A DNA stretch of 64,000 nt from Candidatus Moraniibacteriota bacterium. GTDB lineage: Bacteria > Patescibacteriota > Minisyncoccia > Moranbacterales > GWC2-37-73. This document shows positions 2,347-55,051 of this stretch, piece after piece; position 1 is the first letter of the stretch; each line of letters starts with the position of its first letter. The stretch spans positions 32,421 through 96,420 of the forward strand of contig JAAXUC010000004.1 in NCBI GenBank assembly GCA_013336225.1, read 5' to 3'. The notes beneath the pieces were generated by a model. The model searched no databases. It saw nothing but the letters and a program-made list of their open reading frames with translations, and was not told where the DNA came from. A program made the position numbers and the translations under genes.

Positions 2347-3123
2347 ATGTATAAATATTCAGTTCGTGTGTATAGTTGGGAACCGGCAAGGATTTGCAAG
2401 AGTGATCTTGAATTGCACCCTGGCGACGCTATTGTTGTGAAAGAAGATATGTGCAATGAAATTGCATATATTGAAGATGGTGGAGGAATTGTGATGAAGG
2501 AGAGAAATACAACAATTGCACGCCGAGCAACCGAAAGGGATCTGGAAATGCTTGCAAAAAATATTGAGAAAAAGAATGAAATCTTGAAATTGAGCAAGAT
2601 TGAAATCAAGCGTCTTTTGCTCAACATGAAGCTGGTTGATGTGCATATCAGTCTTGATGGGAGTAATGCTGTGATTCTTTTCACGGCAGATGAGCGCGTG
2701 GATTTTAGAGAGTTGGTGAAGAACCTTTCCAAGATTTTTCATCGAAGCGTGCGCATGCATCAAGTTGGTTCTCGCGATGAGGCCAGGAAGCTTGGTGGTT
2801 GTGGAGTTTGCGGACGGGATCTTTGCTGCTTGCGTTTCCCAGGCAGTTTGCCGAGCATCTCAATTGACATGGCACGCGTGCAGCAAGTCGCACACAGAGG
2901 CAGTGAGAGGATCTCTGGCGTCTGTGGACGTTTAATGTGCTGTCTTTCATATGAAGCTGCTCAATATCAGCAGATGTCAGTAGGCATGCCGGAAGTGCGA
3001 AGTCATGTAAAGATGCGTGAAGGAAAAGGCGAGGTCATTGAATTGAACATATTAACTGGAGATGTTAAGATAAGAATGGCTGATGGGACAATTGTGGTTG
3101 TGAAGAAAGAAGCCCTACTCTAA
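2347..3123 (+). CDS. ricT: PSP1-domain protein RicT/YaaT homolog
   Basis: C-terminal KLGGCGVCGRDLCCLRF...ISGVCGRLMCCLSYE closely parallels the B. subtilis YaaT GPCGRMLCC...GLCGRLMCCLKYE PSP1 motifs. Confidence 0.75.
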   Translation: MYKYSVRVYSWEPARICKSDLELHPGDAIVVKEDMCNEIAYIEDGGGIVMKERNTTIARRATERDLEMLAKNIEKKNEILKLSKIEIKRLLLNMKLVDVHISLDGSNAVILFTADERVDFRELVKNLSKIFHRSVRMHQVGSRDEARKLGGCGVCGRDLCCLRFPGSLPSISIDMARVQQVAHRGSERISGVCGRLMCCLSYEAAQYQQMSVGMPEVRSHVKMREGKGEVIELNILTGDVKIRMADGTIVVVKKEALL

Positions 3124-3151
3124 ATTTTTTTCAAAATTATCCTCAAACAGA

Positions 3152-3811
3152 ATGTTGAATTATATTTTGCCGCCAATCATAATTGTTATCAGCATTTCAA
3201 TTTTGATAATGTTTCTTTTTCGCAAGGCTGCGCAAATTCCAGCGGGGGAGTTTGCCGTTGATGAGGACAATGGAAGAAATCATGAAAAAAATGCCACCAA
3301 GATGATGTCAGGGCTTGGGCAATTCGGCTTGAAAATCTTGGAAAGATTAATGCATCATTCGAAACTGCTTTCACTCAAATTTCACAATGTGAGCAATGTG
3401 TGGTTTCAGACAATTCGCGAAAAAAGAAAGCAAAGCGCGCAATTGCAAAAGGACAGGCAAGCTCAGCAGGAGGAGCAAGTAGCATTTTCTCGAAAGAGCA
3501 ATCTCAATGTTGATGTGCAAGCCGACAGCCTTGTTTTGCAAGAAAGGCAAACATTGAGGCCAATGGTGCGATCAACCATGACAATGCCGCAAAAGAATAA
3601 TGCCAAAGAAAAGAATCAGTTGGAGGACACTTTGATAAAAAGAATCGCCATCAATCCTAAGGATATTGAAGCTTATGAGCGATTAGGGGATTATTATCTG
3701 GAAAGTGAGAATTTTGGCGATTCATTGGAATGCTTTAAGCAAGTGCTGAAATTGAGCCCAGCTCATCACAAAGCCAGGCTGCGAATTAGAAGACTTGAAA
3801 AATTGAAATAG
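3152..3811 (+). CDS. hypothetical membrane-anchored protein with C-terminal TPR-like helix pair
   Basis: N-terminal TM helix (ILPPIIIVISISILIMFLF), Q/K-rich middle, C-terminal AYERLGDYYLESENFGDSLECFKQVLKLSP TPR-like region. Confidence 0.4.
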   Translation: MLNYILPPIIIVISISILIMFLFRKAAQIPAGEFAVDEDNGRNHEKNATKMMSGLGQFGLKILERLMHHSKLLSLKFHNVSNVWFQTIREKRKQSAQLQKDRQAQQEEQVAFSRKSNLNVDVQADSLVLQERQTLRPMVRSTMTMPQKNNAKEKNQLEDTLIKRIAINPKDIEAYERLGDYYLESENFGDSLECFKQVLKLSPAHHKARLRIRRLEKLK

Positions 3812-4020: not shown

Positions 4021-4043
4021 AGCCCGTAAGGGCGATGCATTTC

Positions 4044-4126
4044 GGGTAGTTACCAAAGCGGTCAACTGGATCTGGCTGTAAACCAGACGGCGTAAGCCTT
4101 CGGGGGTTCGAGTCCCTCACTGCCCA
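4044..4126 (+). tRNA. tRNA-Tyr (anticodon GUA, long variable arm)
   Basis: Acceptor GGGTAGT/ACTGCCC, anticodon stem TCTGG/CCAGA with loop CTGTAAA, long variable arm CGGCGTAAGCCTTCG, T-arm GGGGG-TTCGAGT-CCCTC. Confidence 0.85.
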
Positions 4127-7960: not shown

Positions 7961-8021
7961 TTAAGTAGGTTAATTTCTTTCTCTGATTATAGCAGGATAA
8001 TCAATTTCCTGCGATGCAATT

Positions 8022-8082
8022 TGTCATTCCCGTGAAAACGGGAATCCAGGGCTAGGCATCACTCTGGATCCCCAGTCAAGCT
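8022..8082. repeat. foldback (MITE-like) element with TGTCAT termini, internal ATTCCCG-N7-CGGGAAT palindrome and GGATCC motifs
   Basis: tgtcattcccgtgaaaacgggaatccaggg... arm pairs with rc arm tgtcatcctcagcttgactggggatccagag; related copies at 54041-54093 and 54967-55051. Confidence 0.55.
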
Positions 8083-8121
8083 GAGGATGACAAAAAATAT
8101 TTAGTGTCATATGAATTTTGC

Positions 8122-8157
8122 AAAAAAAAGAGATTGCAATCAAGCAATCTCTTTTTG
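8122..8157. terminator. bidirectional terminator (agagattgc-aatcaa-gcaatctct, A-run / T-run)
   Basis: 9-bp stem with flanking A8 and T5; serves the minus-strand helicase gene. Confidence 0.6.
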
Positions 8158-9926: not shown

Positions 9927-11297
9927 ATGGAAGAAAAAAAGGTGACAAAAATGGAAGACATTGTTTCATTTTGCAAACGCAGGGGATTTGTTTTTCCAAC
10001 TTCAGAAATTTATGGAGGATTGGCAAATTCATATAGCTATGGTCCGTATGGGGCAGAGTTGAAAAATAACATCAAGAAAATGTGGTGGAAAAAATTCGTG
10101 CAAAAGCGCGAAGATGTGGTGGGCATGGATGGTCCAATTTTGCTCAACACGAAACTTTGGGAAGCTTCTGGTCACATTGGAGGTTTCAATGATGCTTCAG
10201 TTGATTGCAAAAAGTGCAACAAAAGATTTCGAGCTGATCATGTGGTGAAGGAACTGACTGGAGAAGACATGGAAGGTGAACTGGAAAAGATGACCGCAAC
10301 TTTGCAGGCTGGGCTTAAATGTCCTGAATGCGGAAAATCTGATTGGACCGAGGTGCGCAACATGAGTCAGATGTTTCAAACAGAAATGAATGGGGTGGAT
10401 GGACCGATCTATCTTCGTCCGGAAACAGCCGGAGCAATTTTTTCTGACTACAAGAACGTGGTTGATTCAATGCGCGTGAAAATTCCTTTTGGAATTGCGC
10501 AAATTGGAAAAGCTTTTCGCAATGAAATTGTGGCGAGAAATTTCATTTTCAGAATTCGAGAATTTGAACAAATGGAAATTGAATATTTCATCGAGCCAGA
10601 AGCGAAGTGGGAAGCAATGTTTGAAAAGTGGTTGGATGAGCAGGAAGAATTCGCACTTTCGCTTGGTGCTAAAAAAGAAGATTTGAGGCGCTATGAACAT
10701 CCTAAAGCAAAGCTCTCACATTATTCCAGAAAAACTGTGGATACTGAATATAATTTCCCCTTTGGATTTGGCGAATTGTTTGGCTTGGCGCATCGTGGTG
10801 ATTTTGATTTGACACAACATTCGAAATTTTCAGGACAAAAACTTGATTATTTTGATGCAGCTGCCAACAAGAGATATGTTCCACACGTGCTTGAGCCAAC
10901 CGTTGGTTTGGATCGTTTAATTTTGACAACCATCTGCGCAGGTTATACTGAGGAAAAATTGGAAGATGGTGAGCGCATTGTGATGAAGTTTCCCAATGCA
11001 GTGGCGCCAATCAAAGTGGCGGTTTTCCCACTGATGAAAAACAAGCCAGAACTTGTTTCCAAGGCCAAAGAAATTTTTGGAAATTTGAGTGAAGATTTCA
11101 TGTGCGAGTTTGATGATAATGGAAATGTTGGAAAACGTTATCGTCGCCAAGATGAAATTGGAACTCCATATTGCGTGACTGTTGATTTTGAAACACTTGA
11201 AGATGGCGCCGTCACCGTGCGCGACCGCGACACCATGAAACAGGAGCGAATCAAAATTTCCGAGCTGCAAACATTCTTCGCAGAGAAATTGCGATAA
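9927..11297 (+). CDS. glyQS: glycyl-tRNA synthetase, alpha2 dimeric type
   Basis: MEDIVSFCKRRGFVFPTSEIYGG...YGPYG N-terminus, class II motifs (FRNEI, GLDR), anticodon-binding C-terminus. The second ATG at 9951 has the better SD. Confidence 0.9.
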   Translation: MEEKKVTKMEDIVSFCKRRGFVFPTSEIYGGLANSYSYGPYGAELKNNIKKMWWKKFVQKREDVVGMDGPILLNTKLWEASGHIGGFNDASVDCKKCNKRFRADHVVKELTGEDMEGELEKMTATLQAGLKCPECGKSDWTEVRNMSQMFQTEMNGVDGPIYLRPETAGAIFSDYKNVVDSMRVKIPFGIAQIGKAFRNEIVARNFIFRIREFEQMEIEYFIEPEAKWEAMFEKWLDEQEEFALSLGAKKEDLRRYEHPKAKLSHYSRKTVDTEYNFPFGFGELFGLAHRGDFDLTQHSKFSGQKLDYFDAAANKRYVPHVLEPTVGLDRLILTTICAGYTEEKLEDGERIVMKFPNAVAPIKVAVFPLMKNKPELVSKAKEIFGNLSEDFMCEFDDNGNVGKRYRRQDEIGTPYCVTVDFETLEDGAVTVRDRDTMKQERIKISELQTFFAEKLR

Positions 11298-11452: not shown

Positions 11453-12082
11453 TTATGCAGTCATTTTGTTTGTGCGGCGTTTCCCGTACACTGCAATCCC
11501 AAGCAGGCCAACTGAAAACAGTGCCATGGTTCCTGGTTCAGGAACGGGTGCAACCGAAGTCATGTTTATGCCAATTTCGTTTAAACTGAAATCATTCCAG
11601 CAGAGATCTCCAGCCAGGACACTTACTTGAATCAGGCCATCCTTGAGATATTCTTCAAGTCCAGCTTGCTTGAGGTCAATGGTGAATATTTTGCTGGCAG
11701 GACTCATTTGAAACCAGGAAAAATTTCCCAAAAATAGAGTCTTGTCCAGGAGTTTCGTGTCTCCATCCATTGCTCCGGAAGAAATCACAATTCTTTCTGG
11801 CAAAAGATCTGCAGAAGAAATTGTGACTCCCAGGAGCGCAGACGTGATGCTTGAGCCTGGCAAAAATCCAAGAGCATCAGTTGTGGCTCCATTGGTTTGG
11901 TTTACGAAGTCAAAGTTAAAGACCGCGGACTGACCCTGCGATAGTGTTACACTTTGATTGCCATTTAAAAAAGCTTCCTGTTGAGTCATTGGCAGTGCGA
12001 ATGCCATCCCAGCTGTCATCAACATCATCAACATTACAATTAAAAAGTTTTTCATTAAAAATCTCCTTTTCGGTTGAACCAC
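11453..12082 (-). CDS. secreted protein with C-terminal PEP-CTERM sorting signal
   Basis: Signal peptide with basic n-region (KRRFLMKNFLIVMLMMLMTAGMAFA); C-terminus VPEPGTMALFSVGLLGIAVYGKRRTNKMTA = PEP motif + TM helix + basic cluster. Confidence 0.65.
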   Translation of the reverse strand: MVQPKRRFLMKNFLIVMLMMLMTAGMAFALPMTQQEAFLNGNQSVTLSQGQSAVFNFDFVNQTNGATTDALGFLPGSSITSALLGVTISSADLLPERIVISSGAMDGDTKLLDKTLFLGNFSWFQMSPASKIFTIDLKQAGLEEYLKDGLIQVSVLAGDLCWNDFSLNEIGINMTSVAPVPEPGTMALFSVGLLGIAVYGKRRTNKMTA

Positions 12083-18244: not shown

Positions 18245-18449
18245 GGATTATCATTTGAAAATGCGTTTTTTACTGTGTGACAATGTTTCATCTTCTTGTT
18301 GATCTGCAAAAATTGTTATTTCTTGTGCATGAAAATGGAATTGTTTTCCTTTCTCAAAAGTTTGTTTTAGTGTATAATTTGATTAGTAAATGTTTTTTTA
18401 TTTGAACTTAATTGATGATGATAAATTTGAATTAATAGCAGCTAATATT

Positions 18450-19001
18450 ATGAAAAAGACAAAAGAAGGGAGAAGTGTTTTTTCATGGATGAATCCTTGT
18501 TTGGAGGTTAGATCAATATCTAAGTATGGCAATAATGGAAAAGGAATTTTTACATTAAAAGAAATAAAAAAAGGTGAGGAGTTGGCTGTCTTTGGTGGTT
18601 ATATTGTAGCAGTTAAAGATCTGATTGATTTACCAGAGAAATACAGAGATCTCGGATTTCAGATATCTGATAAATTTTCAATAACTAGTAAGAATATAAA
18701 TGAAGACTCTGATAATTTTAATCATAGTTGTGATCCTAATGCTGGGATATGTGGACAAATATTTTTAGTTTCAATGAGGGATATTAAAAAAGGAGAGGAA
18801 GTTGTTTTTGATTATGCTATGGTTTTAAGTAAAAGTACTGGTGCTGAAAAATATGAAATTAAATGTTTATGTGGATCAGTAAAATGTAGAGGTAAGATAA
18901 CTGAGAATGATTGGAAGATGCCAGAATTACAAAAAAAATACAATGGATACTTCCAACATTTCTTGCAGGAAAAAATTAATAAAATAAATACAAAAAAATG
19001 A
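18450..19001 (+). CDS. SET-domain protein (putative protein lysine methyltransferase) with post-SET Cys cluster
   Basis: SET signature FNHSCDPNA, EEVVFDY, and post-SET CLCGSVKCRG. Start taken at internal ATG 18450; stop overlaps the HK start (ATGA). Confidence 0.8.
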   Translation: MKKTKEGRSVFSWMNPCLEVRSISKYGNNGKGIFTLKEIKKGEELAVFGGYIVAVKDLIDLPEKYRDLGFQISDKFSITSKNINEDSDNFNHSCDPNAGICGQIFLVSMRDIKKGEEVVFDYAMVLSKSTGAEKYEIKCLCGSVKCRGKITENDWKMPELQKKYNGYFQHFLQEKINKINTKK

Positions 19002-53386: not shown

Positions 53387-53977
53387 ATGGCAGTAAAAAA
53401 AGTAGAGAAAACTGAAAAAGTTGCAAAACCTAAAGCAGCAAAAGTTGTGAAACCAAAAGCTGAAAAGGTTGTTAAGGCTGCAAAAGTTGCTAAGGTTGTG
53501 AAAACTGCTGCTCCTGCTGAAGCTAAAGAAGCAACTGTGAAAGTTGAAAAAGTGGCAAAGGTTACAAAAAAAGAAAGCGGCGTATATTTCTATGCTGTTG
53601 GACGAAGAAAAACCTCTGTTGCTCAAGTCAGATTGTATGCAGATGAGAAAGCTACTGAAAATGAACTTGTGATCAATGATAAGAAGCTTAAGGATTATTT
53701 CCCAACAGTTTCACTTCAGAATAACATGCTGACACCGTTTAAGGCTGTTGGTTTGCACAACAAATTCCGCATGACAGTGCTTGTCCGTGGTGGAGGAGTG
53801 ACCGGTCAAGTTGAAGCTGTGCGATTGGGAATTGCTCGTGCGTTGGTTGTTTTCAATCCTGAACTCAAAAAGACTTTGAAAGATCTTGGACTCATGACTC
53901 GCGATGCTCGCGAAGTTGAACGAAAGAAAGCCGGTCTCAAGAAAGCTCGAAAAGCTCCACAATGGGCAAAACGATAG
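53387..53977 (+). CDS. rpsI: 30S ribosomal protein S9 with ~65-aa Lys/Ala-rich (histone H1-like) N-terminal extension
   Basis: Core YFYAVGRRKTSVAQVRL...GGGVTGQVEAVRLGIARAL...KKARKAPQWAKR. Confidence 0.9.
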   Translation: MAVKKVEKTEKVAKPKAAKVVKPKAEKVVKAAKVAKVVKTAAPAEAKEATVKVEKVAKVTKKESGVYFYAVGRRKTSVAQVRLYADEKATENELVINDKKLKDYFPTVSLQNNMLTPFKAVGLHNKFRMTVLVRGGGVTGQVEAVRLGIARALVVFNPELKKTLKDLGLMTRDAREVERKKAGLKKARKAPQWAKR

Positions 53978-53991
53978 TTATTGCAATTTAT

Positions 53992-54024
53992 ACAAAAGAC
54001 ATCTCGAAAGAGATGTCTTTTTTT
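53992..54024 (+). terminator. rho-independent terminator (aaaagacatctc-gaaa-gagatgtcttttttt)
   Basis: Perfect 12-bp stem plus T7 after rpsI. Confidence 0.7.
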
Positions 54025-54040
54025 GTCTACATAAAACTTT

Positions 54041-54093
54041 ATCATTCCCGCACCCGCTTAAAGGCAAGCATAAACTCTGGCGGGAATCCAGGA
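54041..54093. repeat. palindromic ATTCCCGC...GCGGGAATCCAGG element (relative of the 8022 foldback element)
   Basis: atcattcccgcacccgcttaaaggcaagcataaactctggcgggaatccagga. Confidence 0.45.
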
Positions 54094-54365
54094 TTTAGCA
54101 AGATCTCCTATTTCGCATCTATATTTTTTATGCCTGATGAAGATACTGTGGCAAAGACTTCACTCTTCGCTAGAATTTACACTGCGCGTCTTCGTCTGCT
54201 GACGGACGCTACGTTTCAAAATTCCTTAACGCTCATCACTCGTCTTTCGCCTACGTACTTCATATGGCAAAAAAATATAGATACGAAATGGCTATAAAAA
54301 TGCGATAAAGCTTTAGGCGCTATTAATGCCTAAAACAAGGCATTAATAAACTTGTCCTCATTTTG

Positions 54366-54395
54366 CTTGACTTTTTGTTGAAAAAGAAGTATAAT
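54366..54395 (+). promoter_or_regulatory. candidate promoter (TTGACT -18- TATAAT)
   Basis: Upstream of the 54478 gene. Confidence 0.45.
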
Positions 54396-54867: not shown

Positions 54868-54890
54868 TTGAGGATTGATGAATGTTTACG

Positions 54891-54929
54891 GCTTGTGTGT
54901 CTGGAAATTCAGACGCACAAGCCTTTTTT
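54891..54929 (+). terminator. rho-independent terminator (gcttgtgtgtc-tggaaattcaga-cgcacaagc + T6)
   Basis: Direct reading. Confidence 0.6.
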
Positions 54930-54966
54930 AATATCAAAAAACGCATTTTGCAATGCGTTCTTATCT

Positions 54967-55051
54967 TGTCATCCTGAATGCAATGAAGGATCCCGTGCTC
55001 AGTATTAGTAGCTAAGATATTTAGGGATTCTTCGCTTCACTCAGAATGACA
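54967..55051. repeat. 85-bp imperfect foldback (MITE-like) element with TGTCATYCTGA termini and internal GGATCC
   Basis: Left arm tgtcatcctgaatgcaatgaaggatccc vs rc of right arm tgtcattctgagtgaagcgaagaatccc; same family as 8022-8082. Confidence 0.55.

Follow-up and report, generated by a model that had tools for sequence, protein, structure and literature searches.

The window, that is, the whole 64-kb stretch of DNA analyzed here, comes from a CPR bacterium, has 37.8% G+C and is part of a housekeeping chromosome: it holds rpsB-tsf, tRNAs, aminoacyl-tRNA synthetases, glycolysis genes, and the rpsM-rpsK-rpsD-rpoA-rplQ-rplM-rpsI cluster. No transposase (Y1 transposases included) or other nuclease gene was found among the scanned window proteins. 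The window also encodes a PEP-CTERM sorting-motif protein (11453-12082, minus strand, E = 8.5e-7) and a SET-domain protein (18390-19001, plus strand, E = 5.7e-14), both of which are, to our knowledge, unusual for Moranbacteria. RpsI (53387-53977) carries a Lys/Ala/Val-rich N-terminal extension of ~65 residues, which, on the basis of length and coverage values, seems to be common to many 76-86% identical homologues, several of them labelled Moranbacteria.

Three intergenic sites of this window, all beside terminator hairpins, contain five copies of a directional unit of ~28 nt, which we named U1 to U5:

8022-8049, plus strand: U1, an NTS-like unit (TGTCATTCCCGTGAAAACGGGAATCCAG), with GTCAT, an 8-bp stem, a GAAA loop, and then CCAG
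8050-8063, no strand: 14-nt spacer that separates U1 from U2 and is bridged by pairing of their CCAG tails (GGGAATCCAG / CTGGATCCCC)
8064-8092, minus strand: U2, a unit (TGTCATCCTCAGCTTGACTGGGGATCCAG) with an 8-bp stem, including one G-T pair, and a CTTGA loop
54040-54091, plus strand: U3, a solo degenerate unit (TATCAT-ATTCCCGC-(28-nt loop)-GCGGGAAT-CCAG)
54967-54995, plus strand: U4, a class B unit (TGTCATCCTGAATGCAATGAAGGATCCCG) with a 5-bp stem, tandem G.A/A.G, two A-T pairs, and a GCA triloop
55023-55051, minus strand: U5, a class B unit (TGTCATTCTGAGTGAAGCGAAGAATCCCT), matched by the class B HMM at E = 3e-9 and fitting the pattern GTCATYCTGAGYGAAGCGAAGRATC
54967-55051, no strand: element 3, the 85-nt inverted pair U4/U5 with a 27-nt spacer and 28-nt arms that are 79% complementary

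The order within a unit is TGTCAT, a hairpin with the A of GTCAT as the first base of its 5′ arm, and then CC. GTCAT is kept in four of the five units (U1, U2, U4, and U5 read TGTCAT, and U3 is one mutation away), the C directly 3′ of the palindrome is present in all five, and no two of the units are identical. Since U1/U2 (8022-8092) and U4/U5 (54967-55051) are inverted pairs with GTCAT outermost, they resemble TGTCAT...ATGACA foldbacks. Element 1 (U1/U2, 71 nt) contains two separate hairpins, ATTCCCGT/ACGGGAAT and ATCCTCAG/CTGGGGAT, and a further inverted repeat (I3) of 10 nt, 90% complementary, across the spacer. Element 2 consists of U3 alone, one hairpin in which a stem of 8 bp closes a loop of 28 nt; A replaces the G of its GTCAT. 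Element 3 lies between the stop codon of a PEGA-domain gene (55098, minus strand) and the terminator hairpin 54940-54959 of the same gene.

The original prediction had described the three sites as 55-85-bp palindromes sharing terminal TGTCATYC / GRATGACA motifs. All three exist and are located in intergenic DNA, yet they differ in kind, being two inverted pairs and one solo degenerate hairpin, and the repeated unit is not the palindrome but the ~28-nt directional hairpin, which at one site stands alone. The shared ends hold for element 1, whose termini TTTGTCAT / ATGACAAA form a perfect 8-nt inverted repeat, but not for element 2, which starts with TATCAT and lacks the GRATGACA end; the end of element 1, given as 8082, has to be moved to 8092, where the sequence quoted for it ends. 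The proximity of the sites to terminators was seen correctly: the hairpins 53994-54021, 54890-54923, and 54940-54959 were reported by the terminator/hairpin tool, and 8126-8155 was read directly from the sequence and was not listed by a simple terminator scan.

Downstream of U3, ~270 nt of non-coding sequence (54092-54366) separate it from the TTGACT-17-TATAAT promoter (54367-54395) of a gene for a 129-aa membrane-like protein. No Pfam-bearing ORF and no Rfam match were found in 54092-54366. An extra degenerate unit had been suspected there, at ~54156-54185, and was dropped, as neither of the two profile HMMs detected it.

Then, we evaluated the units against shuffled sequences. Taken alone, the short motifs quoted in the original prediction do not exceed chance in the window, with nine TGTCATYC against 5.5 expected and two GGGAATCC against 1.3. 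The composite GTCATYC-N12-13-GRATCC occurs four times against 0.013 per shuffle (12 of 1,000 shuffles contained any), which leaves a chance origin poorly supported, and ATTCCC-N8-GGGAAT occurs once (8026-8045, within U1) against none in 100 shuffles. Profile HMMs built from units found elsewhere matched U1 (E = 6e-9), U5 (E = 3e-9), and U4 (E = 8e-5), and U3 gave only weak half-site matches to the class A HMM. As ssDNA, U1 folds at −7.8 kcal/mol (z = −4.7), and element 1 forms a three-way structure on both strands (z = −4.0), in which I3 is the middle helix. The fold of element 3 is less strong (z = −2.0 and −2.4), and U3 (z = −0.6), U4, and U5, taken singly, fold no better than shuffles by nearest-neighbor parameters.

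A system made of a repeat and its nuclease has already been described by Chenal et al. (Nat Commun 2025, PMC11893778). The NTS (CGTCATTCCCGCGMAVGCGGGAATCYRG) is a 28-nt oriented element that includes about half of the Neisseria dRS3 copies, and NTS-like elements, called SRM (Ssn-related motif), are found in many bacteria, where they flank ssnA, a single-domain GIY-YIG gene of ~94-95 aa (cd10448) (PMC11893778). SsnA binds the hairpin as ssDNA only, does not bind RNA, and cuts ~3 nt 5′ of the unit; mutagenesis attributed the largest weight for cutting to the three bases before the palindrome and the largest weight for binding to the C after it, and Ssn makes N. meningitidis less transformable by DNA that carries the repeat (PMC11893778).

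The window units share with NTS/SRM the directional GTCAT flank, the hairpin, the following C, and the CYRG tail; they are likewise intergenic and many-copy and, in other genomes, enclose ssn genes. More in detail, U1 contains an exact match to the dRS3 consensus and shares 25 of 28 positions with the NTS consensus; two of the three differences compensate each other, converting the last stem pair from C-G to T-A. U3 reads ATCAT for GTCAT, at positions that matter for cleavage. The differences concern the host, a CPR bacterium (Candidatus Moranbacteria), a group without mention in the main text of PMC11893778; the arrangement, which here is that of gene-less inverted pairs; and the inner fold of U4 and U5, a tandem G.A plus GNA-triloop mini-hairpin. 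Phage contigs contain similar units as well. Furthermore, the published SRM motif, HGTCWYN(0-2)YYVSBRHN(0-5)WNVSBRGN(0-2)RNCYNB, matches U1 alone in the window (one match against 0.065 expected) and leaves U2-U5 outside; this regular expression is too narrow as the sole test of membership.

As regards the dRS3 elements themselves, U1 is literally the 20-bp ATTCCC-N8-GGGAAT, a pattern fitted by none of U2-U5, and dRS3 pairs flank RS segments (NIMEs) as the inverted pairs of the window flank a short spacer. On the other hand, the window belongs to another phylum and contains a single exact dRS3-type unit in 64 kb, and it gives no sign of use as an integration site by filamentous phages.

We also investigated the relation of the units to ssn genes in other genomes, starting from a locus of a Patescibacteria MAG (L282) in which a GIY-YIG ORF (PF01541) has unit pairs nearby, and aligning the homologues of this ORF. 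The Ssn of this locus is 57.8% identical to the single gonococcal ssnA orthologue, whose gene is flanked by NTS units 3 nt beyond the stop codon and ~100 nt upstream. For the association test, we fetched 80 ssn-centered metagenomic loci and searched them with a unit finder requiring GTCA, a stem of at least 5 bp, a loop of 3-14 nt, and then C. A unit was present within 250 nt of the gene in 73 of the 80 loci, and on both sides in 46. The density of units was 4.6-5.1 per kb in the first 250 nt from ssn, 0.6-1.2 in the next 250 nt, and 0-0.7 beyond. The usual layout, relative to the strand of the gene, is a plus-strand unit 10-30 nt before the ssn start and a minus-strand unit 10-30 nt after the stop, with GTCAT outermost; viral contigs present an equal layout, in some cases with the gene bracketed by entire inverted pairs.

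Units of the U1 and U2 types are found in this position. Units identical to U1 flank ssn in three loci (L327, L364, and L367) and are also present in a viral contig (L106), and the CTTGA-loop subclass of U2 flanks it in three (L332, L359, and L362). A single ssn gene is enclosed by a unit with a 4-nt loop and one with a 5-nt loop (CTTGA or CCTGA), which is the U1/U2 combination, in L313, L317, L367, L377, and L381.

The Ssn family is large and strongly conserved, with 7096 matches at E ≤ 1e-15, many of them with CPR names, and judging from these sequences ssn genes are common in CPR genomes. In the window itself, no ssn gene or remnant was found by phmmer, jackhmmer, tblastn with a word size of 2, or hmmsearch --max on six-frame pieces of at least 15 aa. 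A GIY-YIG gene of the ssn family on a Rhizobium sp. K1/93 plasmid (NZ_CP072149.1, L425:2992-3282) has no GTCAT-hairpin unit on either side, and thus the gene also exists without its repeats.

Some peculiarities of single loci were also observed. In L327 (Ga0265293_10013693), at least 10 units, three of them identical to U1, lie within 250 nt on either side of the ssn gene at 3001-3282, an arrangement that is a local array and not a single flanking pair. At the gonococcal locus (L424, NZ_CP119142.1:1881319-1882388), GTCAT is innermost in the NTS units, opposite to the usual metagenomic arrangement, and a clean in-frame ATG for the conserved N-terminus is missing from the ssnA orthologue. PLSDB lists two N. 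gonorrhoeae chromosomes of 2.17 Mb among its plasmids.

The gene enclosed by the units bears on two other explanations based on mobile elements. REP/REPIN elements served by a RAYT transposase (Y1, IS200/IS605-like) follow the same logic, with ssDNA hairpin units, inverted doublets, intergenic dispersal, and a single-copy enzyme gene flanked by units, and the life cycle is probably of the same kind. REPs carry the tetranucleotide GTAG or GTGG 5′ of the hairpin, while the 5′ motif of the window units is GTCAT. Moreover, the RAYT enzyme is an HUH Y1 protein, while the gene flanked elsewhere by our units is GIY-YIG (PF01541), an unrelated fold, and not Y1_Tnp, none of which is present in the window. 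No RAYT gene flanked by GTCAT units came to notice in the ~500 loci fetched, in an inspection that was not aimed at Y1 transposases. That the window elements are themselves REPs is thus very improbable, and what is left is an analogy, which Chenal et al. themselves drew for SRM/Ssn (PMC11893778).

The second explanation is that of a Correia-like MITE of a DDE transposon, in which TGTCAT...ATGACA would be terminal inverted repeats bound as dsDNA by a transposase acting in trans. The size of the elements (71-85 nt), their terminal inverted repeats, their intergenic position, and their presence or absence between relatives (see below) would agree with it, and Correia elements (NEMIS) are similarly small, intergenic, and bounded by inverted repeats. 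Correia elements, however, measure 100-155 bp, have a TA duplication, and end in an unrelated sequence, a 26-bp terminal inverted repeat, whose consensus is unmatched in the window within three mismatches. No TA duplication is present at the elements (elements 1 and 3, read from the sequence), and the "inverted repeats" are self-folding directional hairpins that are also found singly. In addition, the gene enclosed elsewhere is a GIY-YIG nuclease, and no transposase is present in the window. This explanation is largely refuted, and we consider it highly unlikely. The likeness to dRS3 and Correia repeats that had been proposed for the window elements is therefore valid for its first half, on account of U1, and not for its second, the Correia family being a different one.

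Then, we assessed how widely the units are distributed. The U1-type pattern TGTCATTCCCGTGNNNACGGGAATCC was found at at least 120 genome loci, spanning 31 to 64% G+C, 17 of those listed being CPR loci. By record title, the hosts include Proteobacteria, Desulfobacterota, Nitrospirota, Bacteroidota/Ignavibacteria, Chloroflexota, Planctomycetes, Verrucomicrobiota, Spirochaetota, Rickettsia endosymbionts, Vampirovibrio, and others. Only one of the 120 listed loci contains an ssn gene; therefore, most copies are dispersed far from the enzyme gene, as they are in the window. Among these 120 loci, CPR loci included, GTCAT is outermost in 60 of 80 adjacent unit pairs. The hairpin also covaries: with the outer 4 bp as the sole constraint in the collection of inner segments, all four inner pairs were formed in 25 of 59 distinct segments, against 1.2 expected, and one inner pair occurred as C-G, G-C, and T-A.

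U4 and U5 belong to a different type of hairpin, called class B. Its sequence was confirmed in viral contigs: GTCATYCTGAGYGAAGCGAAGRATC is letter-perfect in 60 of them, often as inverted pairs, and its Y/R positions covary (T-A, C-G, one T-G, and no C-A). In the fold, a 5-bp stem is followed by a tandem G.A/A.G, which is conserved, a further two pairs, and a GNA triloop, with GCGAAGC as the canonical core. Among 37 class B units that were not selected by our own pattern, the first inner pair is formed in 36 (G-C in 23, A-T in 7, C-G in 5, and G-T in 1) and the second in 35, and the triloop is mostly GNA. The inner pairs of U4 (A-T/T-A) are compensatory relative to the canonical G-C/C-G (GC-GAA-GC).

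Class B likely belongs to the Ssn system, as far as its sequence context indicates. In some loci, among them CPR loci and one ssn locus, class B and classical units are found together. The link to Ssn is weaker than for the classical units because class B flanks an ssn-type gene in one case (L052 = L416) and was found beside none of the 80 metagenomic ssn genes; the search for relatives of the L052 gene in viral contigs returned none beyond L052 itself. Full-text searches of the literature did not retrieve any paper with the exact class B sequence.

In two viral contigs, a class B unit lies close to a phage gene: 16 nt from a head-protease gene (L047, unit 4031-4055) and 56 nt from a replication-initiation gene (L049, unit 10730-10754). 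Thus, at least some of the carriers are genuine phage genomes. Clustering of the ORFs within 400 nt of the units in 60 viral loci identified no common neighbor gene.

To place the window elements in their genomic context, we compared them with orthologous sites of relatives. For element 1, the comparison was with L182, a Logan contig from another sample, whose SLT/LysM protein is 84% identical to that of the window and which keeps the order helicase-terminator-SLT. The features of this comparison are:

8016-8104, no strand: 89-nt stretch holding the whole of element 1 and absent from L182 (alignment A1 of the helicase-terminator-SLT intergenic region)
8105-8110, plus strand: second TGTCAT, right after the indel; L182 reads TGTCGC
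8126-8155, no strand: bidirectional terminator-like hairpin, outside element 1 and after the DEAD-box helicase gene, conserved in L182

The flanks aligned on both sides, with 121 of 196 aligned columns identical between L182 and the window, the terminator and promoter stretches being the closest. TGTCAT both begins U1 and recurs directly after the 89-nt indel, and the junction is ambiguous; the repeated TGTCAT could represent a target duplication or microhomology. For elements 2 and 3, the comparison was with L423, a JGI contig with an RpsI 82% identical, which presents the order rpsI, small gene, PEGA-like gene, and 165-aa gene. In L423, units are missing both downstream of rpsI and from the spacer that separates the small gene from the PEGA-like gene, which measures 47 nt against 135 nt in the window. 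At the place of window positions 54092-54366, L423 has an unrelated sequence with short CACGGAT repeats.

Presence/absence variation among relatives, which the original prediction had proposed as a check, is thus found for all three elements, and the identical placement in all relatives that would have spoken against the prediction is not observed, the sites in L182 and L423 being empty. U3 is present in a Logan contig of the same organism as the window (L419), and, except for this copy, the ~76 kb fetched from relatives contained no convincing unit. In relatives with an SLT protein 55-57% identical, synteny is lost, and hence they are uninformative on element 1. An all-against-all megablast of the fetched loci, run to detect pairs of filled and empty sites, revealed no indel containing units. 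Either a gain in the window or a loss in the relatives is possible, since two sequences per site cannot polarize the indels.

The same comparison is relevant for the hypothesis that the elements act at the RNA level, as transcription terminators, 3′-UTR stabilizers, or small RNAs. All three sites lie beside terminators, and element 3 is within the 3′ UTR of the PEGA-domain gene; REPs are known to stabilize mRNA in E. coli. The neighboring terminators, however, are separate adjacent hairpins, both kept in L423 and retained in general in the relatives lacking the elements, which speaks against the termination role considered in the original prediction. As candidates for intrinsic terminators (G+C-rich stem-loop plus T run), the elements themselves were rejected, the scans listing the neighboring hairpins in their place. 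Element 1 comes after the helicase terminator and before the SLT promoter, and the family occurs on both strands and inside phage genomes. In Rfam, only tRNAs passed the gathering thresholds across the whole window, and at E ≤ 1 the best matches in the two element regions scored 13-29 bits against thresholds of 44-105. Finally, SsnA does not bind the RNA form of its hairpin (PMC11893778). A function in RNA appears, on the whole, improbable.

Coherently with the layout described above, the interpretation that we favor, with a probability of about 0.78, is that the three sites are five GTCAT-hairpin (NTS/SRM) repeats, of which the two inverted pairs are gene-less, non-autonomous derivatives of ssn cassettes and U3 is a decayed solo copy. 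The pairs can be read as ssn cassettes without the gene because their layout equals that of the two units enclosing ssn elsewhere. By analogy, their relation to ssn would be that of REPINs to RAYT genes or that of MITEs to insertion sequences. The idea of non-autonomous elements mobilized in trans, present in the original prediction, agrees with this gene-less cassette-end layout and with the absence from relatives, with mobilization itself as a hypothetical step.

According to this interpretation of the sites as NTS/SRM repeats, a unit would fold when the strand reading GTCAT-hairpin is single-stranded, and the folded unit would be bound by the ~95-aa Ssn and cut ~3 nt 5′ of the unit. For the window copies, the enzyme could be encoded elsewhere in the genome or be brought by a phage, and the ssDNA state could arise during replication, DNA uptake, or phage replication. 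Spread of the pairs, as non-autonomous passengers, may then follow an ssDNA route that depends on Ssn, and in a DNA-scavenging CPR bacterium the system might act on incoming or replicating single strands. Against such a spread, Ssn is predicted to cut opposite strands at the two ends of a pair, and we know of no joining or transposase activity of this enzyme.

A serious alternative, which concerns present function only, is that the units derive from ssn cassettes but are now orphan relics in a genome that has lost Ssn or never had it, offering only short homologies and hairpins. Coherently with it, the 64-kb window contains no ssn gene, U3 is decayed (ATCAT, 28-nt loop), the five units are all different, and the ~76 kb from relatives are devoid of units except for U3 in the same organism. 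Conversely, U1, a perfect 8-bp hairpin, has identical counterparts at live ssn genes; U2, U4, and U5 retain every conserved position (GTCAT, pairing, and following C); ssn is frequent in CPR genomes, and 64 kb are a small part of a genome. We regard a loss of function in the host as rather doubtful.

A broader proposal can be put forward only tentatively, and the odds are against it in its full form: Ssn cassettes and gene-less pairs might constitute one mobile family, extending over most phyla, CPR bacteria, and phages, in which Ssn would be the mobilizing enzyme, the pairs REPIN-like passengers, and class B an unrecognized substrate class.

Taking again the three sites as NTS/SRM repeats, the results extend a known system to ultra-small CPR bacteria and to phage genomes, and indicate that its common dispersed form is an inverted pair mimicking the ends of an ssn cassette. 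Such pairs vary between close relatives at otherwise conserved housekeeping loci, and the published search motif does not capture one variant hairpin (GTCATYCTGAGCGAAGCGAAGRATC) that is very widespread. Recognition of these repeats also improves MAG annotation, as they intrude into called ORFs and break short-read assemblies. Indeed, a called ORF of a viral contig (L008) reads VILSEAKNL across a unit. Furthermore, a Logan contig of the same organism as the window (L001, SRR11449212) ends inside element 1, right after U1 (L001:1-27 corresponds to window positions 8048-8022), as is expected if the repeat breaks the assembly graph.
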